This document shows positions 1 through 27,018 of a stretch of DNA of 32,000 nt, in pieces. Source of the stretch: Phycisphaera mikurensis NBRC 102666. Its GTDB lineage: Bacteria > Planctomycetota > Phycisphaerae > Phycisphaerales > Phycisphaeraceae. The translations under genes and the position numbers were made by a program. The stretch lies in assembly GCF_000284115.1 (NCBI RefSeq), contig NC_017080.1:2640001-2672000 (forward strand), read 5' to 3'. The stretch's first letter is position 1. Every line of letters begins with the position of its first letter. Under the pieces are notes generated by a model. The model saw only the letters and a list, made by a program, of their open reading frames with translations, was not told where the DNA came from and did not search any database.

Positions 1-452
1 ACACCCGCTTCAACGTGGTCGTGCGCCCTGGCGACATCATCCGCGTCCCCAACGAGAACGCCGGCTTCTGCTACTTCACCGGGCAGATCGCACGCGGTGG
101 CGCGTACAACGTCCCCGGCGAGAACCGCCTGACGCTCAAGCAGGGCATCGCCGCCGCCGGCGGCCTGGGCCCGCTGGCCAACCCCAAGCGGGTGGACCTG
201 GTGCGGCGGATCGGCGACGACACGGAGGCCACCATCCGCCTCGACGTCAAGGCCATCTACGACGCGACGCAGCCGGACATCTACCTGAAGGTCGAGGATC
301 AGATCAACATCGGCACCTCCTTCTGGGCGGTCCCCCTGGCGATCGTCCGCAACGGCCTCCGCCTGACGTACGGCTTCGGCTTCATCGCGGACCGCAACTT
401 CGGCAACGACATCTTCGGGGCTCCGCCCCGCGACGACGGCTTCCGCCGCTGA
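1..452 (+). CDS. Polysaccharide export protein, C-terminal fragment (Wza/EpsE/GumB-like); 5' end lies outside the window
   Basis: Frame 3 is open from the window edge (TRFNVVVRPGDIIRVPNE...) and stops at TGA 450-452. The VVRPGDII.VP motif and the following SLBB-like segment are typical of periplasmic polysaccharide export proteins. The gene sits at the head of the EPS/exosortase cluster. Confidence 0.7.
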   Translation, partial: TRFNVVVRPGDIIRVPNENAGFCYFTGQIARGGAYNVPGENRLTLKQGIAAAGGLGPLANPKRVDLVRRIGDDTEATIRLDVKAIYDATQPDIYLKVEDQINIGTSFWAVPLAIVRNGLRLTYGFGFIADRNFGNDIFGAPPRDDGFRR

Positions 453-542
453 CCGCGGCGGCGGCGCCCGAGCGGGCGTCACCGCCGGCGGATCCCCAAC
501 CGCGGCCGCAACGGGCCCGTGACCCCGGTCGCGGGCCCGTGA

Positions 543-2810
<2,268 letters not shown>

Positions 2811-2905
2811 ACCCCCGTTCCCGTGCCCCCCGGGCATCTCCCGGCCGCGACGGCCGGGCTTCCGTTCCGCTCCCGCCCGCCACCGCGGGCCACCCCCACC
2901 CCGCC

Positions 2906-7558: not shown

Positions 7559-7594
7559 TGCGCGTCCACCGCCCCCGCGAAGCGGGCACCGCGG

Positions 7595-7652
7595 GCGCCC
7601 GATTTTCCGCGGACCGCCGCTCGCCGTGCCGCTCCGCGGGCACGGTCCGCGG
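7595..7652. repeat. REP-like hairpin element, copy A (GCGCCCGAT-N3-CCGCGGACCGC-N22-GCACGGTCCGCGG)
   Basis: The 46-nt hairpin at 7607-7652 has stem sequences identical to the hairpin at 16203-16248, and both are preceded by the same GCGCCCGAT 9-mer. It is intergenic, downstream of the TPR gene stop. Confidence 0.5.
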
Positions 7653-7767
7653 GAAGGCGGTTGCCTCTCGACCCGGTACGGTTGATCCTGCGTAGGAGCC
7701 GCGAGGGCTCCTGACCTCCCCGCCTTCCGGCTTTTCGATCCCGCTTTCCTCGCTCACGCGTAACGCC

Positions 7768-10218: not shown

Positions 10219-10281
10219 CGGCCCTCGCCCGCTCGTCCGGGTCCCGCTCCGGGGCGGGCTCGAGGCGGCCGCCACCCGCTG

Positions 10282-11346
10282 GTGCTCGCCGCTCCTCCTC
10301 CCGATCCTCCTCCCGGTCCCGTGCCTGAACCCCGCCACCTCCTCGTCACCGGCGCCGCCGGCTTCATCGGCTCGCACCTGGTGCGGCGGCTGCTTGCCGC
10401 GGGGCATCGGGTCACCGGCCTGGACGACCTCTCCACGGGCTCGGCCGAGAACCTCGCGGAGCTTCCCGGCGGCGCACGCTTCCGGCTGCACGAGGGCGAC
10501 GCCGCGACGCTGCTGCGGTCCGCCGCGTTGGAAGGCACGATCGACGGCGTCTTCCACCTCGCCGCGTCGGTGGGGGTGGCGCGGGTGGTCGACGCCCCCT
10601 CCGCGTCCGCCGAGAACAACCTCGACCAGAGCCGCGCCGTGCTGCGCTTCGCCCGGGAGCGGGGAGCGGCGCTCCTGCTGGCCTCCAGCTCGGAGGTCTA
10701 CGGCAAGTGCCCGGCGTTGCCGTGCCGCGAGGCCGCCGACCTCTGCTTCGGCCCCCCCACCGCCAGCCGCTGGAGCTACGGCCTCGCCAAGGCGCTCGAT
10801 GAGCACCTCGCCCTCGACGCCGCGCGAAGCGGCGGCGGTCGCGTGATCATCGCGCGTCTTTTCAACGCCATCGGCCCCGGCCAGCTCGGCCGCTACGGAA
10901 TGGTGGTGCCCCGGTTCGTGACGGCCGCGGCCGCAGGCGGCGAGCTGGAGGTCTACGGCGACGGCTCGCAGGCCCGCTGCTTCTGCGACGTGCGCGACAC
11001 CGCCGCGGCGTTGGAGCGGCTCCTGCTCGGCCCGGCGCCGGCCCATGAGATCTTCAACGTCGGCGGCGACGAGCCGGTGACGATCGCGGCGCTCGCGGAG
11101 CGGGTGCAGCGGCGGGCGCGGGCCCTGGGCCTCCCAGGCGGCACCATCGTCCACCGGCCTTACGAAGAGGTGTACGGCGCCGGCTTCGAGGAACCGCGGC
11201 GGCGTGTGCCTGACCTCGGACGCGTCCGGGCGGCGGGTTGGGCGCCGCGGATCGGCCTCGACCAGACGCTCGATGCGCTGCTGCGGCCGCTGGCGGCGGC
11301 GCGGTCCGCGGGTGGAACGATTCAAGCGGTGGGGGTGCCCGCTTGA
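10282..11346 (+). CDS. NAD-dependent nucleotide-sugar epimerase/dehydratase (extended SDR)
   Basis: The protein has a Rossmann motif (LLVTGAAGFIGSHL), the catalytic ASSSEVYG and Y-G-L-A-K (YxxxK) motifs, and RLFNAIGPGQ and VYGDGSQARCFCDVRD. GTG 10282 is the only plausible start upstream of the GxxGxxG motif. Confidence 0.85.
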   Translation: MLAAPPPDPPPGPVPEPRHLLVTGAAGFIGSHLVRRLLAAGHRVTGLDDLSTGSAENLAELPGGARFRLHEGDAATLLRSAALEGTIDGVFHLAASVGVARVVDAPSASAENNLDQSRAVLRFARERGAALLLASSSEVYGKCPALPCREAADLCFGPPTASRWSYGLAKALDEHLALDAARSGGGRVIIARLFNAIGPGQLGRYGMVVPRFVTAAAAGGELEVYGDGSQARCFCDVRDTAAALERLLLGPAPAHEIFNVGGDEPVTIAALAERVQRRARALGLPGGTIVHRPYEEVYGAGFEEPRRRVPDLGRVRAAGWAPRIGLDQTLDALLRPLAAARSAGGTIQAVGVPA

Positions 11347-11393
11347 GCGAGAACGAGCCCCTCCTCGCCGCTCCTCCGCTCGCGGAGACCGCC

Positions 11394-12731
11394 ATGAGTG
11401 AGCCGCTGGGCCTGCTGGACGTGCTGTCGCCGTACGTCGGCGTGCTCGTCGTCGCCTTCCTGGTCACGGTCGTGGTGACCCCGTGGCTGCGCGGCCTCGC
11501 AGTGACTCACGGCATCGTCGACGTGCCCGATCTGCAGCGGAAGAACCACGCGCTGCCGGTGGCCTACCTCGGCGGGGTCGCCATCTTCCTGGGCTTCTCC
11601 ATCGCCGCGATCGCGGTGACCGCCTTCCCGGCGATCGGCGGCTTCGGCCAGGTGCGGGAGGGACGACCGCCGATCCCCTTCCCGCTCTCGATCCTCGCCG
11701 GGGCCGCCGTCATCACGATCACCGGCCTCTTCGACGACGTCGGGACCATCCGCGCCCGCGTAAAAGTCGGCGGGCAGCTCTTCGCCGCCGCCGCCCTCGC
11801 CTACGAGAACATCGGCGTTCACCTCGCCGAGAACGCCTTCGGAGTCATCGGCCTGCCCTGGCGGGAGCTCAACGCTTTCAGCCTCTTCGGCAGCCCCCTC
11901 GGCGACAGCCTCGTCTACGCCGGCGGGACCTTCCTCATCGCGGTGATGGTGCTGGGGGCCTGCAACTCGGTGAACCTGCTCGACGGGCTCGACGGGCTCG
12001 CCGCGGGGGTGGTCGCGGTGGCGATGACCGGCTTCCTCGTGCTCTCGCTGATCGTCGCTTCCCGCGCGGCCGATCCCAGCGGCGTGCTGCTGCTGCACCT
12101 CTGGGACCCCGTGCGGATCATCATGTGCCTCGCCACGATCGGGGCGATCCTGGGCTTCCTCCCGTACAACTTCCGCCCGGCGAGCATCTTCATGGGCGAC
12201 GCGGGCTCGCTGCTGCTCGGGTACCTGGCCGCGACCAGCATCCTGCTGTTCTCCGACACCGGCGCGCAGTCGCTGCTGCTCGTGACCGCGGCGCTGATCG
12301 TGTTCGCCGTTCCGATCACCGACACCTCGCTGGCGATCATCCGCCGCAAGCTCCGCGGGATGCCGCTCTTCGCACCCGACAACCAGCACATCCACCACCT
12401 GCTGCGGCAGAGCGGCCTGTCGGTCCGCCAGTCGGTCCTGGTGATGTACGCCGCGGGCGTCGGCTTCGCGTTGCTCGGCGTCGGCATGGTGGCGGCCGAG
12501 CTGCAGTGGCGCTACATCCTGGTGGTGTTCTGCGTGCTCTACGGCAGCATCATGGCGACGGCGTTCAAGTACGGCAGCCTCCAGCACAGCCTCGACCTGC
12601 AGCGCAAAGCCGCCGCCTCGGACCCGATCGCTCTGCCGGCCGGCCCCGCTGCGGCGGGCGCGAGCGCGGCCGCCCCGCCGCCGGGTGGCGCCCCGGCGCC
12701 CGCCGCGGAGGCGGCGCTGCCGGAGGCCTGA
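11394..12731 (+). CDS. Glycosyltransferase family 4, polyprenyl-phosphate sugar-1-phosphate transferase (WecA/WbpL/MraY-like priming enzyme)
   Basis: The protein is polytopic and carries the family motifs GLFDDVGTI, NSVNLLDGLDGLA, FMGDAGSLLLGY, PITDTSLAIIRR and PDNQHIHH. ATG 11394 (MSEPLGLLDV...) is preferred. An alternative TTG at 11343 would overlap the upstream stop as TTGA. Confidence 0.85.
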   Translation: MSEPLGLLDVLSPYVGVLVVAFLVTVVVTPWLRGLAVTHGIVDVPDLQRKNHALPVAYLGGVAIFLGFSIAAIAVTAFPAIGGFGQVREGRPPIPFPLSILAGAAVITITGLFDDVGTIRARVKVGGQLFAAAALAYENIGVHLAENAFGVIGLPWRELNAFSLFGSPLGDSLVYAGGTFLIAVMVLGACNSVNLLDGLDGLAAGVVAVAMTGFLVLSLIVASRAADPSGVLLLHLWDPVRIIMCLATIGAILGFLPYNFRPASIFMGDAGSLLLGYLAATSILLFSDTGAQSLLLVTAALIVFAVPITDTSLAIIRRKLRGMPLFAPDNQHIHHLLRQSGLSVRQSVLVMYAAGVGFALLGVGMVAAELQWRYILVVFCVLYGSIMATAFKYGSLQHSLDLQRKAAASDPIALPAGPAAAGASAAAPPPGGAPAPAAEAALPEA

Positions 12732-14600: not shown

Positions 14601-15423
14601 GCGGGAGCGCAGCGCCCACGACGGTTCCGATCTTCTCACCGCGGACCGCGGCGGCGATGTTGCCGGGCTTCTTCATGTCGAAGACGAGGATCGGGATGTC
14701 CCGCTCGCGGCACTGCGCGAAGGAGCCGGTGTCCATGATGTCCAGGTCGCGGGCGATGGCTTCGTCGAAGCTGAGCGTCTCGAATCGGACGGCGTCGCCG
14801 TGCCGCTTGGGGTCCTTGTCGTAGACGCCGTCGACCTTGGTCGCCTTGAGCAAGACATCCGCGTTGATCTCGGCGGCGCGGAGGCTCGCGGCGGAGTCGG
14901 TGGTGCAGAAGGGGTTGCCGGTGCCGCCGACGAAGATGACCACGCGCCCCTTCTCGAGGTGTCGGATCGCCCGGCCGCGGATGAACGGCTCGGCGACCGA
15001 GGAGACGGCCAGCGCCGAGAGCACGCGGGCGGGCTGACCCAGCGACTCGAGGCCCTCCTTGAGCGCGAGCCCGTTGATGACGGTGCCCAGCATGCCCATC
15101 TGGTCGGCCACGGCCTGGTCGATGTGGCCTTCGGCGGCGAGCGTGGCCCCGCGGATGATGTTCCCGCCGCCGACGACCACGGCCACCTGTCCGCCCTCCT
15201 TCACCGCCGCGGCGACCTCGCCCGCGATGACCTGCAGCTCGTTGCCGTCGATGCCGAAGCCGTTTGCTTCGCAGAGGGACTCGCCGCTGAGCTTCAGGAC
15301 GACGCGGCCGTAGCCGGGGGGCGGGGAGTGGGCGGGGAGGTTCTGGATCAAGGGGTTCTCTGGCGTTCCGAAGCGGCCTCGCGGCGTTGCGGAAGCTACC
15401 GCGCCGCGGACCGCGGGCTCCAT
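14587..15423 (-). CDS. pyrH: Uridylate kinase (UMP kinase)
   Basis: YGRVVLKLSGESL, VVVGGGNIIRG, DQMGMLGTVINGLAL, GGTGNPFCTTDSAASLRAAEI and LLKATKVDGVYDKDP are canonical PyrH motifs. ATG 15423 gives an N-terminal extension of about 27 aa. An in-frame TTG at 15351 is an alternative start. Confidence 0.9.
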   Translation of the reverse strand: MEPAVRGAVASATPRGRFGTPENPLIQNLPAHSPPPGYGRVVLKLSGESLCEANGFGIDGNELQVIAGEVAAAVKEGGQVAVVVGGGNIIRGATLAAEGHIDQAVADQMGMLGTVINGLALKEGLESLGQPARVLSALAVSSVAEPFIRGRAIRHLEKGRVVIFVGGTGNPFCTTDSAASLRAAEINADVLLKATKVDGVYDKDPKRHGDAVRFETLSFDEAIARDLDIMDTGSFAQCRERDIPILVFDMKKPGNIAAAVRGEKIGTVVGAALPPAAG

Positions 15424-15459
15424 CGGCCAGAAGCGGCAACCCTCCGCGGCGGTGGCCGC

Positions 15460-16146
15460 TCAGTGACGACGGAAGAGGTCCGCGACCATCGCCCAGTCCT
15501 CGGCCCCGATGCCCAGGTCCTCGGGGCCGCGTGGCCAGCCGGGATCCGCGGACCGGGGCCGTTTTGCGGGCTCCGGGCCGGCGGTCCGCGGCGTCGGCCT
15601 CGGCTTCACCACCGGGCCGGCCGCGACGGCGTCCGCCGTCGCGGCCTCCACCTCGGCGAGCAGATCGCCGCCGATGCCCATCGCCCGCATCCAGCCCTCC
15701 GCCTGACCGGGGATCCGCTCGGGCGCGGCCGGCCGGCGTACCCCCCGCTCCCGCAGCGGCTTGCGGGCGTGCGCGGCGAGCTTCCGGACGAAGGATTCGG
15801 TGTCGACCGGCCTGACCTTGCGCTTCTTGGCGGCCCGCCGGATCTCGCGGTCGTCGGTCACGACGGCGAGGCGCCGCGGGGCCGAGGCCTCCTCGATGAG
15901 GCCGATCAGCACGTCGTCCGCCGTCCGCGACGGGCCCGCGTACCGCATCCTCGCCGGCCCGCCCGCGTCCCCCGCGACCGGCCCGCCGGGCTTCACGCCG
16001 CCGTCGGCGACGACGATGACGCTGCCCGCGCCGCGGTCCCAGCGGCTGCCGACGAGCAGCTCGCACAGCCGCCGCTCGTTCAGCCCGGCCAGCACCGGCG
16101 GCATCGCCGCGTGCAGCAGGTTGTAGCAGTCGATGAGCAGCCGCAT
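15460..16146 (-). CDS. NYN/PIN-like domain protein, YacP/Rae1-like putative ribonuclease with a Pro/Arg/Ala-rich C-terminal tail
   Basis: The start is ATG 16146 (MRLLIDCYNLLHA...), inside track ORF 15460..16950. The pattern LLIDxYNLL ... VIVVADGG ... TADDVLIGLIEE ... AVVTDDREIRRAAKK matches the YacP-like (DUF901, COG3688) fold. Confidence 0.7.
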   Translation of the reverse strand: MRLLIDCYNLLHAAMPPVLAGLNERRLCELLVGSRWDRGAGSVIVVADGGVKPGGPVAGDAGGPARMRYAGPSRTADDVLIGLIEEASAPRRLAVVTDDREIRRAAKKRKVRPVDTESFVRKLAAHARKPLRERGVRRPAAPERIPGQAEGWMRAMGIGGDLLAEVEAATADAVAAGPVVKPRPTPRTAGPEPAKRPRSADPGWPRGPEDLGIGAEDWAMVADLFRRH

Positions 16147-16188
16147 CGCGGCGGACCCTACGACGGCCGGCGCGGCGGGGAGGCGCCT

Positions 16189-16248
16189 GCGCCCGATCGG
16201 ACCCGCGGACCGCGGCCGGCGGGGGCCCCGAGCCCGCACGGTCCGCGG
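16189..16248. repeat. REP-like hairpin element, copy B (GCGCCCGAT-N5-CCGCGGACCGC-N22-GCACGGTCCGCGG)
   Basis: It has the same 11-nt left and 13-nt right stem sequences and the same 46-nt hairpin length as 7607-7652, with a different 22-nt centre. It is intergenic, just downstream of the HMA-MauE stop on the minus strand, so it may act as a terminator/stabiliser hairpin (no U-tract). Confidence 0.5.
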
Positions 16249-16262
16249 CTCCAGCCGGCTTG

Positions 16263-16991
16263 TCAGTCCGCCAGCCACAGCACCAGCATCACCGCGGCCA
16301 TGGCGGCCATCGTCAGGTTCTCGATCAGGGTCGCTCGGGTCATCGGCAGGTTGAGCGCGGTGCCCAGGCAGGCGCAGCGGATGGACTGCTTCCCGAGCAG
16401 CGCCCGGAGCACGCCCACGGCGCCGAACCCCATGATCGCGAGCGTCATCGCGTTCGTGACGACCGGGAACAGGGCGAGCAGATACGCAAACCCCAGCGCC
16501 AGTTCCACGAAGGGGTACGCGTACGCGTAGGCCTTCGACCGGCGGGCGAAGAGGTCGTAGCCGCGGAAGGTGCTGACGAAGCCGGGCAGGTCCAGCAGCT
16601 TGAAGAAGGAGAAGACCAGGAAGAAGCCCGCCATGAAGTGCCGCATCATCGGCATCGCCTCCCACCGGCCGGTGGCGGCGGCGACGGCCAGCACCACCGC
16701 GAGGAGGTAGCCGACGATCAGGTACAGCGGGAACAAGCTGGGCTCCGCCTCCGGCGGGGGAGAAGCCGCTGGGGTCTCGGCGGACGCCTCGGCGAGGTGG
16801 TAGGCGCCGGCACCGGCAACGGCGTCGTCGAGCTCCTCCAGCGGGACGTGGCGGTCCATTCGCACCGACGCCCGCGGCGGGTCCAGCGTGACGGTCGCTC
16901 CCTCGACGCCATCGACCCGGTTCAGCGCGTCCTGGATCTTCGCCACGCACGAGGCGCAGTGCATGCCGGTGACGGCGTAATCGTGCTTCAT
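16263..16991 (-). CDS. Heavy-metal-associated (HMA) domain fused to a MauE/DoxX-like four-TM membrane domain
   Basis: The start is ATG 16991 (MKHDYAVTGMHCASCVAKIQDAL...), giving a GMxCxxC HMA fold. Hydrophobic helices follow, ending with the MauE-type Cys pair motif IRCACLGTALN. The ATG overlaps the upstream multicopper oxidase stop (ATGA at 16988-16991). Confidence 0.8.
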   Translation of the reverse strand: MKHDYAVTGMHCASCVAKIQDALNRVDGVEGATVTLDPPRASVRMDRHVPLEELDDAVAGAGAYHLAEASAETPAASPPPEAEPSLFPLYLIVGYLLAVVLAVAAATGRWEAMPMMRHFMAGFFLVFSFFKLLDLPGFVSTFRGYDLFARRSKAYAYAYPFVELALGFAYLLALFPVVTNAMTLAIMGFGAVGVLRALLGKQSIRCACLGTALNLPMTRATLIENLTMAAMAAVMLVLWLAD

Positions 16992-18511
16992 CGCGAGGCG
17001 AGCCTTTCGGTGGTGAGGCCGGCGGCCCGCATCTCCTCGGGCGACACGGGCAGCGCCTGCGTCGCCCGCGGGCCGCGGTACATGCCCGGATCGGTGTTGT
17101 TCGCGAGCATCTCGTCGGTGACGTTCCGCCGGATCTTCAGCAGGTTCGCCATCCCCGCAACGCTGACCTTGCCGTAGGGCCCCATGCCCTTGTACATCGG
17201 TCGGCTGTTCTCGGGGATCGGGTGCATCGGCCGCCCGGTGCGGTCGTTCATGCCGGCGTTGCCCATGGTCATGAAGTCGGGCAGGAGCTCCTGGACCTTC
17301 TCGTCCAGGCCTGCGGGGTTCATCCCGACCGTGTTCGTGAAGTGCATCATCTGCGTCATGATGTGGTGGGTCATGTGGCAGTGGAAGACCCAGTCGCCCT
17401 CGTAGATGCCGACGAGTTCGATGTCCTTGGTCCGCCCGACGGGCACGAAGATGGTCGCTTGGATGTCCTGGTCCTCGGGGGGGATCCGGCGGCCGTCCTC
17501 GGCGGTGACGGCGAACTCGTAGCCGTGCAGGTGGATCGGGTGGTGGTGCACGGCGGAGAGGTTCCCGAAGCGGATCCGCACGCGCTGGCCCAGGCGGGCG
17601 ACCAGGGGCTCGGTGTCGGGCATCACGTGGGCGTTCATCGTGAAGAGGTTGAACATCATCGAGAACGGGTCGGGCCGGTGCGTCCCGGGCGGCATGAACC
17701 AGGTCTGCAGCATGATCGCGAAGTCGCGGTCGACCTCGGGGCCCAGGGCCCCGGGCCCGCTCGCGGGGTACAGCTCGCGGCGCGGATGCACGATGAACAT
17801 GCCGGTGAGCCCCATGCCCTCCTGGGTCATGGTGTCGTGGTGGCTGTGGTACATGAACGTGCCGTTCTGGCGGATCGTCCACTCGTACTTGAAGGTCTCG
17901 CCGGGGAGGATCGGGGCCTGCTCCAACCCGCTCACGCCATCCATCCCGTGCGGGAGGATGAAGCCGTGCCAGTGGACCGTCGTCGGCGCCGGCAGCCGGT
18001 TGGTGACGTAGATGCGGACCCGCTCGCCCTCGACGGCCTCGATGGTCGGGCCCTGGGTGACGCCGTTGTACCCCCACGTGTACGCCTCCAACCCCTCGGC
18101 GAAGCGGTGCTGCACCTCTTCGGCGATGAGGTGGAAGACCTTCACGCCGTCGCGGATCTCGAACGGCAGCGAGCCGTTGTTGGGGGTGACCACCGGCGTG
18201 TAGTCCACGCCGGGCCGGCCCGGCGGCAGCGGCTTGTCGGGCTCAATCCGCTCCCAGTCCTCGTAGGCCTTGGCCAGGGTGGAGCCGGGAGCCATCTTCG
18301 CCCGCCACTCGTCGCCGGAGGTGTCGCGGAGGAGGTGCGCGTAGGGGTTGTTCTCCGGCAGGTGCTGGCCGGCTGGGGTGGTTCCGGGGGTGCTGGGGGT
18401 GTCAGGCTGCGTGGCGGCGGCGCGGGCGAGGGAGGGCGCCGCGGCGAGGGCGGCGGCGGTCCCGCCGAGCGTGGCGGTGCGGAGGGCGTTTCGTCGGGTG
18501 AGGTCGGGCAT
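16988..18511 (-). CDS. Tat-exported multicopper oxidase (CopA/CueO-class) with a Met-rich C-terminal region
   Basis: The start is ATG 18511 (MPDLTRRNALRTATLGGTAAALAA, a twin-arginine signal). All four copper-ligand motifs are present: VHWHG, YHSHH, HPIHLHG and HCHMTHHIMTQMM. The C-terminal roughly 90 aa is Met-rich (FMTMGNAGMNDRTGRPMHP...MYKGMGPYG). Confidence 0.9.
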   Translation of the reverse strand: MPDLTRRNALRTATLGGTAAALAAAPSLARAAATQPDTPSTPGTTPAGQHLPENNPYAHLLRDTSGDEWRAKMAPGSTLAKAYEDWERIEPDKPLPPGRPGVDYTPVVTPNNGSLPFEIRDGVKVFHLIAEEVQHRFAEGLEAYTWGYNGVTQGPTIEAVEGERVRIYVTNRLPAPTTVHWHGFILPHGMDGVSGLEQAPILPGETFKYEWTIRQNGTFMYHSHHDTMTQEGMGLTGMFIVHPRRELYPASGPGALGPEVDRDFAIMLQTWFMPPGTHRPDPFSMMFNLFTMNAHVMPDTEPLVARLGQRVRIRFGNLSAVHHHPIHLHGYEFAVTAEDGRRIPPEDQDIQATIFVPVGRTKDIELVGIYEGDWVFHCHMTHHIMTQMMHFTNTVGMNPAGLDEKVQELLPDFMTMGNAGMNDRTGRPMHPIPENSRPMYKGMGPYGKVSVAGMANLLKIRRNVTDEMLANNTDPGMYRGPRATQALPVSPEEMRAAGLTTERLASR

Positions 18512-18552
18512 GGATGACTCCGGACTGCGGCCGGGGGAGGGGAGTGGGCGGG

Positions 18553-20253
18553 TCAATTCATCGCCATGGGCGGCGCGGCGGGGCCGGTCGCGAGCTTGGG
18601 CGGGACCGAGCCGTCGAGCAGCTGTTGGAGGTCGGCGTAGGCGAACCAGTAATCGCGCAACGCTTGGAGGTAGGCGCGGCCGGCGTCGATCTGGTGACGC
18701 TTGGCGCTCAGCAGCTCGAAGGGCGTGACCGCCATCGCGTTGTACTGCAGCTGGCTCTCGGCCACGAGGGCGGTGTGCAGCGGCAGCACCACGTCGCGGA
18801 GGTAGGCCGCCCGCTCCCGGGTGGTCTGCAGCCGGACTTCGGCCATGCGGGCCATCGAGCGGACCTGGGTGGCGGTGGAGAGGAAGGTCTCCAGCCGCTG
18901 GCGGAGGCGCGAGGCCTCCTCCGGGCGGACGCCCTGCCCCAAGTCGAAGACGGGCAGCGGCGTTGCGACCGACGGCCCCAGCCCGAACTCGCCCGAACCG
19001 GCCCCCTTCTCGGTGGTGATGCCCACATTGAGGAAGGGGAACATGGCCAGGACGTTGCGGAGCTTGAGCCGGGCGGCCTGGGCCTCGATGAGGTGCCGCT
19101 GTCCGGCGAGCGCCAGGCTGCGTTCGACCACGAGGCGCTCGACCGCCGCGGACCGCTCCTGCGAGGGGACCAGCGGGTCGGGAAGCCCGGCCCCGCCGGG
19201 CTCGGAGAGGGCGCCGAGCCAGTCCAGGTCCGGCATCGCGGGCGGCGGACCCGCGGCGGCGCCGGCCGTCCCGCTCCCCGGCGGCATGGAAAGATTCTCC
19301 GCCAGCGGCGGGCCGGCCAACACGGCCGCGGCTCCCTCCGCGGATTCCGCTTTTGGAGCAGGCGTGGGGGCGGGCACCTTCGCGACCTCCTCCGGCACGA
19401 GCACCGGGCTGTCGCCGTGCTCCATCCCGGGAACCGCGTCGGCCGCGCGTCCCTCCGCCGTCGTTGCGGCGGGCGGGCCGACCGGCGACCCGTCCGTGGG
19501 CACCGTCCACGCGGTCATCGAGCCGGACAGACTCATGATCCGGTTGAGGGCCTCCCTGGTTTCGCCGAGCCGCTCGAGGGCCAGGTTCAACCGGAGCTTG
19601 GATTCTTCGTAGAGCGTCCGTTCGCGGAGCACCGGCAGCTGCGGGATGTTGCCGGCCTGGCGGAGCCGCTCGGCCGTGAGGTACGAGGCCTCGGTGGCGG
19701 TGACGACGGCCCGCTCCATGTTCACGAGCTGCCGTTGCGTGAGGAAGGCGACGTAGGCCCGCCGGGCGTCGCCGATGGTGGCCAGGACCGCGGCGGAAAC
19801 CCGCCGCTTGGCCGCTTCGAGCTGCTCGCCCTGAATCTCACGCCGAAGCGGGATCGTGAAGACGCTGATCAGGTTCTGGAAGAGCGCCCCCTCGAAGCTG
19901 ACTCCCGCGTCGAAGAACCACGTGTCCCACGCGAGCACGGGGTTGTCCGGCAGCCCGGCCTGGATCAGCTGACCCCGGGAGATACCCAGTTCCTCGTAGA
20001 CGGCCTGAAGGTCGCGGTTGTGCAGGATCGCCACGCGGACGACCGCCTCGGCGGTCAGCGGCTGCGCCAGCGTCTCGCGGACGATGCGGTCGGCCTCGCG
20101 GTCGGCCTCGGGGGTGCGGGTCCAGGCCGGCGAGACCCCGCCGCGGCTCTCCGCGGTGTCGGCGACATCGCCGAAGCCCGCATCGCGCGGGGCGGATGTG
20201 CAGGCGGACGCGGCCAGCGCGAGCATGGTGGTGGTGAAGAGCAGCCGCTTCAT
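18553..20253 (-). CDS. TolC-family outer membrane efflux protein (OMF) lipoprotein, without adjacent MFP/RND partners
   Basis: The start is ATG 20253 (MKRLLFTTTMLALAASAC, a lipobox-like signal). Two OEP-type repeats are present (AILHNRDLQAVYEELGISRGQLIQAGLPDNP... and ...LQYNAMAVTPFELLSAKRHQIDAGRAYLQALRDYW). They are separated by a Pro/Ala-rich insert of about 110 aa. Confidence 0.8.
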   Translation of the reverse strand: MKRLLFTTTMLALAASACTSAPRDAGFGDVADTAESRGGVSPAWTRTPEADREADRIVRETLAQPLTAEAVVRVAILHNRDLQAVYEELGISRGQLIQAGLPDNPVLAWDTWFFDAGVSFEGALFQNLISVFTIPLRREIQGEQLEAAKRRVSAAVLATIGDARRAYVAFLTQRQLVNMERAVVTATEASYLTAERLRQAGNIPQLPVLRERTLYEESKLRLNLALERLGETREALNRIMSLSGSMTAWTVPTDGSPVGPPAATTAEGRAADAVPGMEHGDSPVLVPEEVAKVPAPTPAPKAESAEGAAAVLAGPPLAENLSMPPGSGTAGAAAGPPPAMPDLDWLGALSEPGGAGLPDPLVPSQERSAAVERLVVERSLALAGQRHLIEAQAARLKLRNVLAMFPFLNVGITTEKGAGSGEFGLGPSVATPLPVFDLGQGVRPEEASRLRQRLETFLSTATQVRSMARMAEVRLQTTRERAAYLRDVVLPLHTALVAESQLQYNAMAVTPFELLSAKRHQIDAGRAYLQALRDYWFAYADLQQLLDGSVPPKLATGPAAPPMAMN

Positions 20254-20693
20254 CGTCCGGCCTCCGTCTCGCTGGCTCGATCCGCGTTCTCCGTGAACCC
20301 GCTGCGGGGCCGGTTCTTCATGCCCGGCTCCGGGGCGTCCGGTTGGAACAGGGGCGCCCGCTCGGAGGCCTCCTTCACCTCGCCGGTGTCCGATTCCTCC
20401 ACGCCCGGGGGCAGCTCCCGGGCGTCCCAGGCGGCGTCCATCATCGGGAGCACCGGCTGGGGGTCCACGGCGGCGGTCGCGGCTGGACCGCGGCCGGTGG
20501 GCGCGATCGCCAGCCACGGCGCCGCCACCGGCATCATGCCGGCGGGTGCGTCGGGCTCGGCGGGGTTGCCGACGACGAGAGCGTCGTCGATGATCTGCTG
20601 CGTGTCGGTGCAGCCGACGGGCGCGAGGGCCAGCAGGGCGAGGGCGGGGCTGAGGAGTTTGATGACGGCCTCCGGGAAGACGCTGCGGGACAA
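20250..20693 (-). CDS. Hypothetical small secreted/lipoprotein with Met-pair motifs
   Basis: The track ORF is 20250..20774. Its GTG 20774 start would overlap the upstream gene by 32 nt, so in-frame TTG 20693 is preferred. That start gives the signal-like SRSVFPEAVIKLLSPALALLALAPVGC. The mature part contains GMMPV, LPMMD and PGM. The stop overlaps the OMF start (ATGA 20250-20253). I recognise no homolog. Confidence 0.45.
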   Translation of the reverse strand: MSRSVFPEAVIKLLSPALALLALAPVGCTDTQQIIDDALVVGNPAEPDAPAGMMPVAAPWLAIAPTGRGPAATAAVDPQPVLPMMDAAWDARELPPGVEESDTGEVKEASERAPLFQPDAPEPGMKNRPRSGFTENADRASETEAGR

Positions 20694-20742
20694 ACGGGTC
20701 CGCCCGCGGGCTGCGGGCGGGCCCCATCGGGGCGAAGGGTGT

Positions 20743-21054
20743 TCAGGCGGCCATGGCGCGGCACGCTTCTGCACAGCGACGCGAGCTGTCCGCGCACGTC
20801 TTGCAGTGCTCGTGGTCGTGCTGCTCGCAGTTCTCGGCGCACCGCTCGCACGCCTTCGCGCACAGCTCGCAGGCCTCCCTGGAGAAGGGGCCTTCGCTGG
20901 CGAGCAGGGTGGCGCAGGCCCGGCAGGCCGCGGCGCAGTCGATGCAGCAGGCGGGGCAGTCGTTGGAGCTTTCCATCCCGGCCATCTTCGCGAGGCAGTG
21001 GTCGCAGTCGGCGGCGCATTCGAGGCAGGTCTGGATGCAGTCGGCGTTCTTCAT
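20743..21054 (-). CDS. Cys-rich four-helix-bundle copper-binding protein (DUF326 / Csp3-YhjQ-like)
   Basis: The start is ATG 21054 (MKNADCIQTCLECAADCDHC...). The protein has 20 Cys in 103 aa, arranged as repeated CxxxCxxC / CxxC helix-face motifs and ending ...CKTCADSSRRCAEACRAMAA. There is no signal peptide. It is the first gene downstream of the CsoR box. Confidence 0.85.
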   Translation of the reverse strand: MKNADCIQTCLECAADCDHCLAKMAGMESSNDCPACCIDCAAACRACATLLASEGPFSREACELCAKACERCAENCEQHDHEHCKTCADSSRRCAEACRAMAA

Positions 21055-21112
21055 CTTCGTTCGCGTTCCTACGTTGGGATCTCGGAAAACCCGACGCCAC
21101 GTTGGTGTCGGG

Positions 21113-21127
21113 TACCCCACGGGGGTA
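21113..21127. promoter_or_regulatory. CsoR operator (TACCCC-ACG-GGGGTA inverted repeat) in the csoR / copper-operon divergent promoter region
   Basis: This is a perfect 6+6 inverted repeat, TACCCCACGGGGGTA, centred in the 116-bp divergent intergenic region (21055-21170). It has the TACCC...GGGTA architecture known for CsoR operators and lies 44 nt upstream of the csoR ATG. Confidence 0.7.
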
Positions 21128-21170
21128 TTCAGAGGATCGGTAGCGCGGCGCATGCCGCGGGTCAAGCTCG

Positions 21171-21500
21171 ATGGCGAAAAAGACGCGACACAAGGGCGAT
21201 GAAGCCGGTCGACCCGCGAAGACCCTGCACGTCGACGCCGAGCACAAAGCCGCCGTCGGGCGCCGCCTCCGCCGCATCGAGGGACAGGTCCGCGGCATCG
21301 AGCAGATGATCGAGGAGGATCGCTACTGCGTGGACATCCTCACGCAGATTGCCGCGGTCCACAGCGGCCTGCGGGCGGTGGCGAAGGAGACGCTCCGCCA
21401 CCACCTCCGCCACTGCGTCCGCGACGCGATGGCGAACGACCCCGGCTCGCTGGAGCGGACGATCGAGGAGCTGCTGGAGGTGTACCACCGGGTTCGCTGA
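21171..21500 (+). CDS. csoR: CsoR-family copper-sensing transcriptional repressor
   Basis: The 109-aa protein has RLRRIEGQVRGIEQMIEEDRYCVDILTQI and the x-C-H-C ligand set (YC ... RHHLRHC) typical of Cu(I)-sensing CsoR (DUF156 family). Confidence 0.9.
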   Translation: MAKKTRHKGDEAGRPAKTLHVDAEHKAAVGRRLRRIEGQVRGIEQMIEEDRYCVDILTQIAAVHSGLRAVAKETLRHHLRHCVRDAMANDPGSLERTIEELLEVYHRVR

Positions 21501-21635
21501 CGCTCCCGCTCCGCGGGCTGCGCCCGCGTAAGGCGGTGGACACGGCGGAAGAGCGAATCGGAGGCGTCGCCGCCAGCGCCGGGGAGCCGGTTGCACCGCG
21601 ACCCGAGCCCGGCCTCGCGGCCGCCCGGCAGCGCC

Positions 21636-22292
21636 TCAGAGCAGCGTGAAGAGCTCGCTGCGCACCATCCCGAAGCAGGCGTCCCGGCGGGCCACCGGGC
21701 GTTGCTCGCGGGTGCCGGGCACGCGGCGCCAGTCGATGAGCCGCCGGTTCGGGCAGCCGGTCTGCCACCGGAAGAAGCCGTGCATCAGGCGGAGCCAAAC
21801 GCGGGCGTGCAGCCGGCGGAGGCGCCCGCCGGGCTCGACGAAATCCACCAGCAGCCAGGTGCCGCCGGGGCGGACGGCGCCGAGCCAGGCGGGCAGCCCG
21901 CGGCCGAGCTGCTCCGCGTCGAAGCAGTCCAGGAAGAAGGCCGTCACGAGAGCGTCGAAGCCGTGCTCCTGAAGAGGGTGCTCCAGCGCGTCCGCGCGGA
22001 CGAAGGCGACGCGTCCCCCCGCTTCAGGGGACGCGTCCGCCACCCGCCGCCGCTGCCGGGCGAGCATCGCGCCGCTGAGGTCGACGCTCACGAAGCGGCA
22101 CCGCGGCCGGGCGCGGCACATCGCCGCGAGCAGCCGGCCGTCGCCGTCGCCGAGCACCAGCACGCGGCCTTCGCCGGGGAGCCGATCGAGCAGAGCGACC
22201 CGCGCCCGATGGAGCCGATCGCCGAAGGCCAGCCACTCCAGGCCCCGGTAGAGCCCGGCGAGCCGGTCGTAGCCGCGGCGGGCGGCGCTCAC
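21636..22292 (-). CDS. Class I SAM-dependent methyltransferase
   Basis: The start is GTG 22292 (VSAARRGYDRLAGLYRGLEWLAFG...). Motif I is VLVLGDGDGRLL, followed by VSVDLS, FVRADAL and FDALVTAFFLDCF. The start overlaps the upstream gene stop (GTGA 22289-22292). Confidence 0.75.
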   Translation of the reverse strand: MSAARRGYDRLAGLYRGLEWLAFGDRLHRARVALLDRLPGEGRVLVLGDGDGRLLAAMCRARPRCRFVSVDLSGAMLARQRRRVADASPEAGGRVAFVRADALEHPLQEHGFDALVTAFFLDCFDAEQLGRGLPAWLGAVRPGGTWLLVDFVEPGGRLRRLHARVWLRLMHGFFRWQTGCPNRRLIDWRRVPGTREQRPVARRDACFGMVRSELFTLL

Positions 22293-25750: not shown

Positions 25751-26176
25751 ATGCTCGCCGCGCTCCCCGTCACGCCCGCCCACGCCTTCCGCTGGCTCCT
25801 CGCCGCGGCCGTGGCCTTCGCGAGCCTGGGGCTGTGCCCGTGCCCGGCCCCCGCATCGGCTCAAGCGATCGCGGCCCAGGCGGAGCCGCACGGTTGCTGC
25901 GAGACCGGGGAAGCGCCCGCCGCGCCGGCGATGCCCGACGAAGACTGCAGCCACTGCGTCCCCGCGGAGACGCCGGTGCGGCTGGCCGCCGGCGACCATG
26001 CGGTGGAGCGGCTGGTGCCGGCGGGGTCGTTCCCGCTGCCCGACGCGCTGCCCGATGCCGCCGGCGCGTGGCCCGATCGGTCGGCGGCCTCGGGGCGGGA
26101 GGCCCGGCCGCTGGCCCGACCCGGGCCGGCCCCTGCGCAGACGCTGCGTGCTCTCCACGCGTTGCTGCTGATCTGA
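25751..26176 (+). CDS. Hypothetical small secreted protein with HGCC and CSHC motifs
   Basis: The start is ATG 25751, preceded by AAGG. The signal-like N-terminus is FRWLLAAAVAFASLGLCPCPAPASAQA. Third codon positions are strongly G/C, consistent with coding. It sits directly upstream of the Cus-like operon. I recognise no family. Confidence 0.5.
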   Translation: MLAALPVTPAHAFRWLLAAAVAFASLGLCPCPAPASAQAIAAQAEPHGCCETGEAPAAPAMPDEDCSHCVPAETPVRLAAGDHAVERLVPAGSFPLPDALPDAAGAWPDRSAASGREARPLARPGPAPAQTLRALHALLLI

Positions 26177-26382: not shown

Positions 26383-27018
26383 ATGAAGCTTTTCCTCCTC
26401 CCCGCTCTTGCCCTCCTCCTCGCCGCCCCCGCGCTGCCTTTGGCCGCCGCGGAGCCTCCGCAGCCGCGGAACGTCTACCCGCTTCCCCACGACCCGGTGA
26501 GCGGCGAGCCGCTCGCCGGGGTCGATCAACCCGTCTACCGGACGCACGAGGGCCGCCGCTTCCACTTCGCCTCCGAGGCGTCGGCGGAAGCCTTCGCCGC
26601 CGCGCCGGGCGATTTCATCCCGGCCGTCGACGAGAGGCTGATCGCCACCCAGTCGCGGGTCTACCCGATGCAGACCTGCGCGGTCGCGGGAGGGGCGCTG
26701 GGGTCCATGGGCGAGCCGGTTGACGTGCTGCTGGGCCACCGGCTGGTGAAGCTGTGCTGCGCCGGCTGCAGGGGCGCGGCCGTGGCGGATCCCGAAGCCG
26801 CGATCGAGAAGCTCGACGCCGCCGTGCTCGCCGCTCGCCCCGCCGGCGACGCCGCGGAGACGTGCCCGGTGACGGGGATGAAGCTGGGCAGCATGGGCGA
26901 GCCGGTGGACATCGTCTTCGCCGGCGAACTGGTCCGCTTCTGCTGCGGCGGTTGCACCTCGAAGTTCCTCGCCAACCCCGCGATGCACCTCCAGAAGATC
27001 GAAGGGGCGGGATCGTGA
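26383..27018 (+). CDS. Periplasmic protein made of three tandem YHS/TRASH-like modules (first module lacks all Cys)
   Basis: The start is ATG 26383 (MKLFLLPALALLLAAPALPLAAA, a signal peptide). Modules 2 and 3 are YPMQTCAVAGGALGSMGEPVDVLLGHRLVKLCCAGC and ETCPVTGMKLGSMGEPVDIVFAGELVRFCCGGCTSKFLANP. Module 1 is YPLPHDPVSGEPLAGVDQPVYRTHEGRRFHFASEASAEAF. The stop overlaps the cusC-like start (GTGA 27015-27018). Confidence 0.7.
   Translation: MKLFLLPALALLLAAPALPLAAAEPPQPRNVYPLPHDPVSGEPLAGVDQPVYRTHEGRRFHFASEASAEAFAAAPGDFIPAVDERLIATQSRVYPMQTCAVAGGALGSMGEPVDVLLGHRLVKLCCAGCRGAAVADPEAAIEKLDAAVLAARPAGDAAETCPVTGMKLGSMGEPVDIVFAGELVRFCCGGCTSKFLANPAMHLQKIEGAGS

Follow-up and report, generated by a model that had tools for sequence, protein, structure and literature searches.

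Five co-directional genes on the minus strand, divergent from a plus-strand csoR gene, probably form a CsoR-repressed copper-stress operon in Phycisphaera mikurensis, composed of two modules that are conserved separately. The genes lie in the window, i.e., the whole 32,000-nucleotide stretch of DNA that was analysed (Table 1). Three of the products (MCO, OMF and HMA-MauE) match NCBI proteins of this species with 100% identity. Because the GC content of the window is about 72%, genes were called from codon-position GC, and their identities were checked by Pfam, NCBIfam and PDB searches, which agreed with the five identities assigned in an earlier sequence-only reading of this DNA. Starting from the operator, the gene order is csp3-like, small lipoprotein, outer-membrane factor (OMF), multicopper oxidase (MCO) and HMA-MauE. 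The tight layout described in that reading is present: an ATGA overlap at 20253-20250 joins the stop codon of the lipoprotein gene to the start codon of the OMF gene, another one at 16991-16988 joins the MCO stop to the HMA-MauE start, and the OMF and MCO genes are spaced by 41 nt. Judging by these overlaps and short gaps, the five genes are presumably co-transcribed. A survey of the window genes found no P-type ATPase, MFP or RND gene inside the operon. The separate cusCBA-like set that had been pointed out nearby was also found, and it includes an OMF of its own.

Table 1. Features of the csoR region and the neighbouring cus cluster (positions in the window)
Feature	Position	Strand	Characteristics
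HMA-MauE	16263..16991	-	242 aa; PF00403 + PF07291
MCO	16988..18511	-	507 aa; Cu-oxidase_3 + Cu-oxidase_2; TRRNAL twin-arginine signal
OMF, TolC/NodT type	18553..20253	-	566 aa; PF02321, E 1e-17; lipobox AASAC
Small Pro/Ala-rich lipoprotein	20250..20666	-	lipobox APVGC; GTG start at 20666
csp3-like	20743..21054	-	103 aa, 20 Cys; DUF326 match
Candidate CsoR operator	21113..21127		TACCCCACGGGGGTA (TACCCC-ACG-GGGGTA)
csoR	21171..21500	+	109 aa; PF02583, E 9e-30
YHS protein, then OMF, CusB-like and CusA-like genes	from 26383		about 5 kb from the operon

Based on its sequence, the csoR product is a Cu(I)-sensing repressor of the CsoR/RicR type. RicR was its top NCBIfam match, and the Cys...His-x3-Cys ligand positions (RYC, HLRHC) are kept in its alignment with the structures 4M1P and 4ADZ. 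The candidate operator sits in the 116-nt divergent intergenic region between csoR and csp3 and precedes the csp3 start codon by 58 nt and the csoR start codon by 43 nt. It consists of two perfect 6-nt inverted arms with a 3-nt spacer, and nowhere else in the window does this sequence occur without a mismatch. We take this GC-rich inverted repeat to resemble known CsoR boxes. The relaxed pattern TACCC-N5-GGGTA gave 11 matches in 1.4 Mb (the window and related loci), 10 of them intergenic beside csoR and the 11th at a cut contig end (L041). The motif was found beside csoR in L013, L028, L037, L052, L064 and L069, as well as in L084, L085, L087, L169 and L174. It separates csoR from OMF-MCO in two Planctomycetota and four Alphaproteobacteria loci, from csp3 or HMA-MauE in L085 and L087, and from csp3 in L169 (the plasmid locus) and L174. 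The recurrence of the same operator in Planctomycetota and Alphaproteobacteria makes the proposed CsoR control of the operon plausible. The accompanying statement, which assigns copZA to classical CsoR regulons, takes too narrow a view: RicR, a CsoR-family repressor of mycobacteria, governs the genes of an MCO, a Cys-rich Cu(I) sink, a lipoprotein and a permease (PMC3944814).

The csp3-like product aligned over its full length with B. subtilis Csp3 (5FIG; phmmer, E 3.4e-14), and other Csp3 structures were also matched in this search; the TIGR04401 match (29 bits) was under the cutoff of that model. No signal peptide was found on the 103-aa product. These features suggest a cytosolic Cu(I) storage protein folded as a Cys-lined four-helix bundle. 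The known Csp3s of B. subtilis (YhjQ), M. trichosporium and S. lividans have an equal length, the same bundle pattern and likewise no signal peptide. Unlike them, the gene in the window directly follows a CsoR operator and shares an operon with genes for copper handling in the envelope; its position next to the operator is seen again in L085, L174 and the plasmid copy.

The combination of csoR with csp3-like and HMA-MauE genes occurs without OMF-MCO genes in L085 and L086, and that of csoR with HMA-MauE in L087. All six genes were found in L174, a distant relative with 44-66% identity and a reshuffled order (csoR, then csp3, HMA-MauE, lipoprotein, OMF and MCO), and partial sets in L001 and L028. 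Furthermore, the 81-kb plasmid of P. mikurensis contains a paralogous csoR-csp3-lipoprotein-OMF-MCO cluster (L169, 76-90% identity), in which a P1B copper ATPase gene immediately follows the MCO gene, i.e., occupies the position of HMA-MauE on the chromosome. The absence of an ATPase, emphasised in the sequence-only reading, is therefore true of the chromosomal operon but describes one variant and not the system. That reading had also considered that a P-type ATPase immediately adjacent in related genomes, with this arrangement a one-off rearrangement, would speak against its proposal. A P1B ATPase does adjoin the plasmid paralog and is located within 10 kb in 26/80 related loci, whereas the recurrence of the ATPase-less arrangement in L001, L028 and L174 excludes a one-off.

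HMA-MauE combines an N-terminal CxxC HMA domain with a five-helix MauE/DoxX-like membrane domain (AF2 model, pLDDT 89.6), and solved structural relatives were found for the HMA part only. It has more than 5,600 homologs, whose alignment contains the invariant motif RCACLG..LNLPMT, and its CxxC and CxC Cys pairs are predicted on one membrane face. Elsewhere, the protein occurs in heavy-metal contexts under HMA-AraC regulators, beside MCOs, CusA, P1B ATPases and DUF305. MauE/DoxX relatives are tied to thiol redox chemistry and not to transport, which counts against reading the protein as an exporter.

We suggest the following role for the first module (csoR, the operator, csp3 and HMA-MauE) in the cytoplasm and inner membrane. 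As cytosolic Cu(I) rises, CsoR would leave the operator, a step suggested by family knowledge and operator conservation, and both divergent promoters would fire. Csp3 would take up Cu(I) in its Cys-lined bundle by analogy with its characterised homologs, and HMA-MauE may handle Cu(I) at the inner membrane with its cytosolic CxxC domain and a cytoplasm-facing CxC/Asn/Met motif of the membrane part. We favour export of Cu(I) to the periplasm by HMA-MauE, given that the plasmid paralog has a P1B copper ATPase in the same position. The replacement of the ATPase is nevertheless positional and nothing more, since HMA-MauE co-occurs with nearby P1B ATPases in L085 and L087. It is possible, if rather doubtful, that HMA-MauE is not an exporter and acts either as a Mer-like importer, bringing periplasmic Cu(I) in for storage in Csp3, or as a quinone-linked thiol/disulfide oxidoreductase, repairing or re-oxidising thiols damaged by copper. 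Its tight pairing with the high-capacity sink Csp3 under CsoR, an architecture similar to MerT/MerP fusions (with weak NCBIfam MerTP and MerT-CopZ matches via the HMA domain), the link of the MauE/DoxX family to redox maturation of methylamine dehydrogenase (Pfam description) and the two Cys pairs on one membrane face agree with such a role. However, the protein at this position in the plasmid paralog is an exporter, copper import under copper stress would be counter-intuitive, and neither a thioredoxin-like MauD partner nor mau genes were found nearby in the window.

The MCO contains the copper motifs HWH180, HSH222, HxxHxH322-329 and HCHxxxH377, of which motifs 2 and 3 are only about 100 aa apart. 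The two-domain MCOs 2ZWN, 3G5W, 3GDC and 7RAB were among its top PDB sequence and fold matches; the AF2 model was of low confidence (pLDDT 67). The enzyme is a putative cuprous oxidase of the Tat-exported two-domain type and, by analogy with other two-domain MCOs, probably a trimer. Its C-terminal extension is Met-rich (11 Met in residues 391-507) and could plausibly bind Cu(I). Assignments to the CopA/PcoA type (137 bits against the TIGR01480 cutoff of 479) and to the CueO type (96 bits against a cutoff of 525) were rejected.

The OMF is a lipoprotein outer-membrane factor of the TolC/NodT type, in which PF02321 (OEP) matches two stretches corresponding to two repeats and a Pro/Ala-rich insert spans about residues 245-370. 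The lipobox Cys is invariant in its family, whose median length is 472 aa. No conserved Met/His cluster indicating copper passage was found in the OMF family, which counts against an exit of copper through it. The small lipoprotein is about 138 aa long if translated from the GTG at 20666 (a TTG at 20693 could serve as the start instead), has the lipobox ...LAPVG/C and matched no Pfam or NCBIfam family. With six Met in 137 aa, the Met-motif label given to it earlier is weak. Its homologs, with 45-80% identity, were found directly upstream of the OMF in L002, L003, L004, L169 and L174, and its N-terminus weakly resembles the HPANP-motif lipoproteins that precede OMFs in other phyla (hhalign probability 74%). 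In at least 41 of 65 loci, the OMF is closely preceded by a gene for a small lipoprotein or an HMBD protein, with a 4-nt overlap in 26 of them.

The OMF-MCO pair is a near-obligate, widespread cassette. The two genes adjoin on the same strand in 54 of the 55 loci with both flanks, covering at least 10 phyla, with the OMF upstream of the MCO in 41 cases and downstream in 13, and the adjoining OMFs are homologs of the operon OMF and not of the CusC-like one. MCO homologs were found on 375 plasmids; in both annotated plasmid regions inspected (Phaeobacter and Simkania), the gene right before the copper oxidase belongs to the TolC family, and in Simkania the pair stands alone next to a Tn3 transposase. 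In addition, tblastn located the pair on S. meliloti pSymA. As observed earlier, the OMF has no dedicated MFP or inner-membrane pump, and a CusA-like gene was found within 10 kb in only 12/80 related loci. Based on the above, the second module (small lipoprotein, OMF and two-domain Tat MCO) would act in the envelope, where the MCO may oxidise periplasmic Cu(I) to Cu(II), and the dedicated OMF with its translationally coupled lipoprotein may provide a pump-independent exit or docking at the outer membrane.

It seems unlikely that the operon mainly makes and places an active oxidase, with Csp3 and the HMA domain loading Cu before Tat export and the OMF exporting or anchoring the MCO at the surface, where Mn(II), Fe(II) or phenolics would be oxidised, a role of the kind proposed for Pedomicrobium moxBA. 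Tat substrates do leave folded, but a TolC-type channel would hardly let through a folded MCO that is probably a trimer. Many members of the MCO family are labelled 'manganese oxidase' by JGI. Ridge et al. are said to have found in 2007 that Pedomicrobium moxA, a relative of this MCO, is essential for Mn(II) oxidation, and reportedly proposed that the TolC-like MoxB acts in secretion; given the finding on moxA, this MCO could have a substrate other than Cu(I). The Met-rich tail, however, resembles those of cuprous oxidases, and the relatives in S. meliloti and M. xanthus serve in resistance and are induced by copper. As for maturation, B. subtilis Csp3 is needed for Cu delivery to the MCO CotA (PMC9484137), whereas elsewhere csp3 and HMA-MauE stand under CsoR without any MCO, and CsoR derepresses at copper excess and not at copper need.

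Quite improbable is a mere juxtaposition of five independent copper-resistance genes sharing a CsoR promoter, in which the OMF would be a spare partner for CusBA-type pumps elsewhere (e.g., the nearby set at 5 kb or one encoded by the plasmid), with HMA-MauE functionally unlinked to the others: the modules are separate in many genomes and reshuffled between relatives, the cassette is mobile on plasmids, and cusCBA-like genes lie nearby in the window and some related loci, but the OMF keeps to the MCO far more regularly than to CusA-like genes, the window cus cluster has its own OMF, the six-gene set is kept in L174 despite rearrangement and low identity, and ATGA overlaps couple lipoprotein to OMF and MCO to HMA-MauE.

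The two-module copper-stress operon is not a wholly new system. The sequence-only reading did not recognise it as a described one, yet its OMF-MCO core has a homologous counterpart on S. meliloti pSymA (45.5% identity for the MCO, 27-36% in two segments for the OMF), and relatives induced by copper, with genetic evidence, have been reported (PMC6266702, PMC3107203). The nearest described arrangements are the S. meliloti MCO operon, M. xanthus MXAN_3424-cuoB and also Pedomicrobium moxBA, in which, as in the window, a TolC-family OMF gene adjoins that of a Tat MCO of the same sequence family on the same strand, without an MFP or pump. The 'MCO operon' of S. meliloti CCNWSX0020 (Omp, CueO, azurin-like protein and chaperone) is induced by copper, and a model in which Cu(I) is oxidised in the periplasm and then leaves across the outer membrane was already put forward for it (PMC6266702), so the same route suggested for the window is not new. 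In M. xanthus, MXAN_3424 (OMF)-cuoB is under the copper sigma factor CorE (PMC3107203), in contrast to CsoR here. The window also differs in its companions (Csp3, a small non-HMBD lipoprotein and HMA-MauE instead of azurin-like and CopZ-like proteins) and in the OMF insert of about 100 aa, unlike the S. meliloti and M. xanthus relatives.

The M. tuberculosis RicR regulon (ricR, mymT, lpqS, mmcO, rv2963 and socAB; PMC3944814) similarly places a Cys-rich cytosolic sink, a lipoprotein, an MCO and a membrane protein, without a P-type ATPase, under a CsoR-family Cu(I) repressor. The likeness does not go beyond function and logic: MymT does not belong to the Csp3 proteins, the RicR genes are scattered loci and not one operon, and mycobacteria have no TolC-type OMF. 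CsoR-copZA and CsoR-cueA divergons (csoR-cueA, PMC5057107) share the divergent csoR, the inverted-repeat operator and an HMA-domain protein among the targets, and the plasmid paralog, like them, includes a P1B ATPase. Unlike these divergons, the chromosomal operon has no ATPase or free CopZ; its HMA domain forms one protein with a MauE-like membrane domain, and csp3 is its first gene. The CopA/PcoA-CopB/PcoB and CueO systems likewise pair a periplasmic, Tat-dependent MCO that has Met-rich segments with an outer-membrane protein for copper resistance, but the MCO in the window is of the two-domain type, and at the outer membrane a TolC-type OMF takes the place of CopB/PcoB.

By its sequence, the operon would be a lineage-specific (Phycisphaerae) combination of known copper-resistance parts with one uncharacterised membrane protein. 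Two points appear to be new. The first is the location of csp3 directly behind a CsoR operator; csp3 genes are said to be rarely copper-regulated (PMC11672702). The second is HMA-MauE, which represents a large uncharacterised family and may take part in Cu(I) handling at the inner membrane.

Gene content, operon layout, conservation of a CsoR operator and the co-occurrence of two gene modules are the directly observed features of the copper locus. Five co-directional minus-strand genes, encoding a Csp3-like protein, a small lipoprotein, an outer membrane factor of the TolC type (OMF), a multicopper oxidase (MCO) and an HMA-MauE protein, were found next to a divergent csoR. Genes were called by codon-position GC, because the window has about 72% GC and mechanical ORF lists are full of false frames. 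These calls, together with Pfam and NCBIfam, confirmed the arrangement proposed in the sequence-only reading, and the two ATGA overlaps (20253-20250 and 16991-16988) and the 41-nt OMF-MCO gap proved to be exactly as described there.

Positions of the copper operon and of other features in the window (window-relative coordinates)
Feature	Position	Strand	Pfam/NCBIfam match
Csp3-like protein	20743-21054	-	DUF326
Small lipoprotein	20250-20666	-	
OMF	18553-20253	-	OEP
MCO	16988-18511	-	Cu-oxidase_3/_2
HMA-MauE	16263-16991	-	HMA plus MauE
csoR	21171-21500	+	Trns_repr_metal
CsoR operator	21113-21127		
Hairpin	20700-20723		
NYN/YacP-like gene	15460-16146	-	NYN, weak, below cutoff
141-aa ORF	25751-26176	+	
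YHS protein	26383-27018	+	
Exosortase-type cluster	1-12731		
816-aa protein	7768-10218		

Genes with no copper link flank the operon on both sides: a methyltransferase, a membrane protein and acetyl-CoA synthetase upstream, and rpsT, frr, pyrH and the weak NYN-domain gene downstream. The latter begins 116 nt after HMA-MauE, a gap with no recognisable terminator, and transcription may read through into it from the copper operon. At the matching position in the related locus L001, the genes downstream of the copper genes run on the opposite strand. Scanning of 15300-21700 gave zero promoter-like sites, and terminator-like sites occurred at chance level. The 76-nt spacer between csp3 and the lipoprotein gene contains a GC-rich hairpin with an 8-bp stem (CCGCCCGC...GCGGGCGG), which would lie just within the lipoprotein gene if the start were at 20693; its folding energy did not differ significantly from that of shuffled sequence (z = -1.4).

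The CsoR protein belongs to PF02583 (103.4 bits, cutoff 22.8), and in alignments with the CsoR structures 4M1P and 4ADZ its RYC and HLRHC segments coincide with the ligand positions, the Cys and His-x3-Cys being conserved. These residues would be the Cu(I) ligands of the x-C-H-C signature. The operator adjoining csoR is a GC-rich inverted repeat, TACCCC-N3-GGGGTA (TACCCCACGGGGGTA), located where the sequence-only reading had placed it, and it is the sole exact match to this pattern within the window. The same motif occurs beside csoR in at least 11 other loci. The relaxed pattern TACCC-N5-GGGTA, scanned over 1.4 Mb comprising the window and the related loci (L-numbers), gave 11 matches; ten lie in csoR-flanking intergenic regions and the eleventh at the cut end of contig L041. 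The box is situated between csoR and OMF-MCO in Planctomycetota (L013, L028) and Alphaproteobacteria (L037, L052, L069, L084), between csoR and csp3 or HMA-MauE in L085, L087 and the window, and upstream of csoR-P1B (P1B, copper ATPase) in L064. As is usual for the family, Cu(I) would release the predicted CsoR from the operator.

The first gene behind the operator encodes a protein with 20 Cys that is, by sequence, a full-length Csp3 homolog: it aligned with B. subtilis Csp3 (5FIG) over residues 5-103 (E 3.4e-14). Its N-terminus (MKNADC) contains no signal sequence, and the score against TIGR04401 (Csp1) fell below the cutoff, as expected for a Csp3-like protein lacking a Tat signal. By family analogy, Csp3 would buffer cytosolic Cu(I). 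It has been stated that csp3 is rarely copper-regulated (PMC11672702). The position of csp3 directly behind a conserved CsoR operator in several genomes is a modest but real novelty and provides a testable case of a copper-induced Csp3.

The last gene of the operon encodes a protein matching PF07291 (MauE) with 55.4 bits (cutoff 27) at residues 115-237. In its AF2 model (pLDDT 89.6), a ferredoxin-like HMA domain at the N-terminus is joined by a linker to five membrane helices. According to the positive-inside rule, the invariant RCACLG..LNLPMT segment between helices 4 and 5 is probably exposed on the cytoplasmic face, on the same side as the HMA domain. Solved structural relatives were found for the HMA part alone, and the membrane domain has no solved or named relative. 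Neither P1B-type ATPase domains nor a MerT fold were detected, only the HMA domain matching those families. The family has more than 5,600 homologs, and the neighbours at the loci examined are copper or heavy-metal genes; we consider HMA-MauE a general metal-homeostasis membrane protein on the basis of these neighbourhoods. In three of four long planctomycete-type contigs it adjoins a divergent csoR, and in two of those three the small ORF between them is Csp3-like and very similar to that of the window. Low-GC, probably Bacteroidota, metagenome loci (L089-L168) have another organization: a same-strand gene for a 190-aa HMA-AraC regulator typically precedes HMA-MauE, and the neighbours include DUF3347/HMA periplasmic proteins, three-domain MCOs, CusA, P1B ATPases, DUF305 and a TonB-type receptor. 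These HMA-AraC plus HMA-MauE loci look like a separate, apparently undescribed metal-response unit. In the literature searched, we found no functional study of HMA-MauE, including any of MauE with copper. Its role as a recurrent CsoR target is likewise new, if modestly so, and concerns a large family present in metal-resistance contexts in both Planctomycetota and the low-GC metagenome loci.

It can be speculated that HMA-MauE hands Cu(I) on at the inner membrane or moves it across, in either direction. That it is an importer or a redox protein is a serious, if doubtful, alternative. No mau genes and no thioredoxin-like (MauD-type) gene were found in the window or at any HMA-MauE locus examined.

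The MCO carries a twin-arginine signal and the copper motifs HxH, HxH, HxxHxH and HCHxxxH...M at 180, 222, 322-329 and 377-388, which are invariant in the family alignment. Only the Cu-oxidase_3 and Cu-oxidase_2 domains were matched in Pfam. The spacing of about 100 aa between motifs 2 and 3 and the PDB sequence matches, which include two-domain laccases (2ZWN aligned to residues 125-387), indicate a two-domain enzyme with a C-terminal extension that is conserved and contains 11 Met. The best Foldseek E-values also fell on two-domain MCOs (3GDC, 2ZWN, 7RAB), but the AF2 model was poor (pLDDT 67) and the structural alignments had a TM of ~0.4 and a high rmsd, so that they lend weak support. The protein scored far below the cutoffs of the CopA/PcoA class (TIGR01480, 136.8 vs 478.95 bits) and the CueO class (NF008205, 95.9 vs 525 bits). 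Two-domain MCOs are homotrimers with trinuclear copper sites at the subunit interfaces.

The OMF, a lipoprotein of the TolC/NodT type, matched PF02321 (65 bits) in two stretches corresponding to two OEP repeats. All 66 family members compared share its lipobox Cys18. At 566 aa, the P. mikurensis protein exceeds every other member of this set (median 472) owing to a Pro/Ala-rich insert of about 100 residues between the repeats (residues ~245-370). The closest Phycisphaerae relatives (560-584 aa) share this insert. Pfam and gene calls revealed no MFP, RND or ABC gene in the operon; unlike the OMF of a typical tripartite pump, this one is not encoded with an MFP and an inner-membrane pump. Functionally, it may depend on a pump encoded elsewhere.

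In at least 41 of 65 loci the OMF gene is immediately preceded by a small ORF, which overlaps its start by 4 nt in 26. The product is usually a lipoprotein in which an HPANP-like motif follows the lipobox, often with a His/Met-rich stretch and an HMBD copper-binding domain (CPMHPEV...CPKCGM). The window lipoprotein is encoded at this position with the same kind of translational coupling, and close homologs of it occur in L002, L003, L004, the 81-kb P. mikurensis plasmid (L169) and a distant relative with the full gene set (L174). Since its N-terminus aligned only weakly with the HPANP group (hhalign probability 74%, partly driven by the signal peptide), we regard the equivalence as positional and plausible. 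With this proviso, the small lipoprotein is a third conserved member of the envelope module.

An MCO alignment, scanned against one genome per species, yielded 80 loci from Planctomycetota, Myxococcota, Verrucomicrobiota, Alpha-, Beta- and Gammaproteobacteria, Poribacteria, Binatia, KSB1, Gemmatimonadota, Rhodothermia and Desulfobacterota. Counted from the MCO side, a same-strand OMF homolog directly adjoined the oxidase in 75 of the 80 loci; among the 55 with both flanks the figure was 54, with the OMF upstream in 41 and downstream in 13. This OMF is a homolog of the operon's OMF and not of the CusC-like one; a word-index search for OMF homologs gave at least 23 matches. Within 10 kb of the MCO, CusA-like genes occurred in 12, P1B ATPases in 26 and csoR in 10 of the 80 loci. 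MCO homologs were found on 375 plasmids. The RefSeq annotation of a Phaeobacter plasmid reads 'TolC family protein - copper oxidase', and genes for copper-binding and azurin-family proteins come next. On plasmid pSn of Simkania negevensis (Chlamydiota; L172, 4587-7218), the TolC-family and copper oxidase genes share 8 nt and have no further companions: a DUF2231 gene lies on one side and a recombinase/Tn3 transposase on the other, with merA-merR nearby. This appears to be a minimal mobile cassette. The same pair is reportedly the moxBA of Pedomicrobium described by Ridge et al. in 2007; 'manganese oxidase' labels at JGI on members of the MCO family fit that description.

Pairs of this type are known from Sinorhizobium meliloti and Myxococcus xanthus, and the adjacent, co-directional window genes, the envelope core of the operon, belong to the same cassette. 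A homologous pair is present on pSymA of S. meliloti 1021. In strain CCNWSX0020, copper strongly induces the 'MCO operon' (Omp, CueO, azurin-like protein, chaperone), for which oxidation of periplasmic Cu(I) followed by copper export across the outer membrane was proposed (PMC6266702). In M. xanthus, the OMF gene MXAN_3424 has a CorE-dependent promoter upstream of it and is followed by cuoB (PMC3107203). The ORFs tested downstream of the Myxococcus locus L062 gave no Pfam matches to support a CorE gene, so equating the Myxococcus loci with cuoB rests on the published description. Copper induction and a role in copper tolerance are reported for these relatives only (PMC6266702, PMC3107203). The OMF-MCO pair is thus a conserved, mobile and already reported cassette of at least 10 phyla. 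In this light, the route put forward in the sequence-only reading, oxidation of Cu(I) and expulsion across the outer membrane, is reasonable but not new, as the S. meliloti proposal predates it (PMC6266702).

The two modules were found in several other arrangements. In L174 (64% GC), csoR and the box are followed by csp3 - HMA-MauE - lipoprotein - OMF - MCO, the proteins being 44-66% identical to those of the window. L028 contains csoR, the box and OMF - MCO - HMA-MauE, and there a gene for an HMBD protein immediately precedes that of the OMF; L001 contains OMF - MCO - HMA-MauE. In P. mikurensis itself, the plasmid contig L169 (81,240 bp) carries csoR, the box and csp3 - lipoprotein - OMF - MCO (76%, 90%, 80%, 81% and 90% identity to the chromosomal proteins). 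The chromosomal position of HMA-MauE is occupied there by a gene for a 777-aa YHS-HMBD-P1B ATPase, followed by OEP-MFP-RND genes. The sequence-only reading had named an ATPase gene right beside the operon in relatives as grounds against its proposal, and the plasmid supplies it in part. The substitution gives positional, not functional, support for placing HMA-MauE at the inner-membrane step.

The paralogous copper island spans L169 1-21737 and includes a gene for a 130-aa protein between the P1B ATPase and OEP-MFP-RND genes; on the other side, a YHS protein (82% identical to that of the window) lies beside a CusC-like OMF (93%). Four CsoR-box matches (2177, 6100, 8708, 9127) suggest a larger plasmid CsoR regulon, including genes with no known copper function: Rieske, DUF2231, sulfotransferase, ion channel and amino-acid permease genes.

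The window also contains a chromosomal cus cluster, in which a secreted protein with tandem YHS/TRASH metal-binding domains directly precedes OMF, CusB-like and CusA-like genes. No CsoR box with fewer than two mismatches was found for this chromosomal YHS-cus cluster, in contrast to the plasmid, where the small ORF preceding the YHS paralog has a box upstream of it. Just upstream of the cluster is an ORF for a 141-aa protein with a signal-like N-terminus and Cys/His motifs (GCCETG, CSHC), for which Pfam gave no match. Small proteins with a related C-terminal ...TLRAL..LL tail precede the RND clusters in L169 (130 aa) and L002 (155 aa). The first 12.7 kb of the window have no relation to the copper genes and form a polysaccharide cluster of the exosortase (EpsH) type, with genes for exosortase-DUF3485, a 1583-aa protein, a Wzc-like P-loop protein, an epimerase and a 462-aa membrane protein. 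The Wzc-like protein (816 aa) was considered as a P-type ATPase and rejected.

In the most likely mechanism, which also takes in the CsoR, Csp3 and HMA-MauE steps proposed above, the MCO would oxidise periplasmic Cu(I), as expected for its family. The lipoprotein-OMF pair might offer an outer-membrane route for the oxidised copper, or for the oxidase itself, with no MFP or pump; one speculative possibility is that a trimeric oxidase docks on the trimeric channel. The logic parallels that of the mycobacterial RicR regulon, where a CsoR-family repressor controls a Cys-rich sink, a lipoprotein, an MCO and a membrane protein (PMC3944814). A joint reading of both modules, which we consider unlikely to hold as a whole, combines a new copper translocator or copper-thiolate redox protein with a pump-less lipoprotein-OMF-MCO complex. 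HMA-MauE would found a new class of inner-membrane Cu(I) translocators that are independent of ATP, or would be a redox protein handling copper-thiolates; it would work with Csp3 as a primary CsoR target and could replace the CopA ATPase. The lipoprotein, the trimeric OMF and the presumably trimeric MCO would form an MFP-less complex with the oxidase on the periplasmic end of the channel, through which Cu(II) exits. If true, a TolC-type channel would here be operated in a new manner.

Quite improbable, in our estimation, is that the operon serves MCO maturation or that the MCO is a surface oxidase; support for this reading comes from the delivery of copper by B. subtilis Csp3 to the oxidase CotA (PMC9484137). 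Mere juxtaposition of independent genes is very unlikely.

That OMF and MCO are paired near-obligately and without a pump, in many cases together with a small lipoprotein encoded upstream, is a modest but real addition to what was known, and the main review of copper homeostasis leaves the working of a pump-less OMF channel unaddressed (PMC7558416). A TolC-type channel that is nearly always encoded beside a two-domain copper oxidase, with neither adaptor nor pump, constitutes a widespread mobile copper-resistance cassette. P. mikurensis, with two paralogous operons of 76-90% identity that differ in carrying HMA-MauE or a P1B ATPase, provides a natural comparison.
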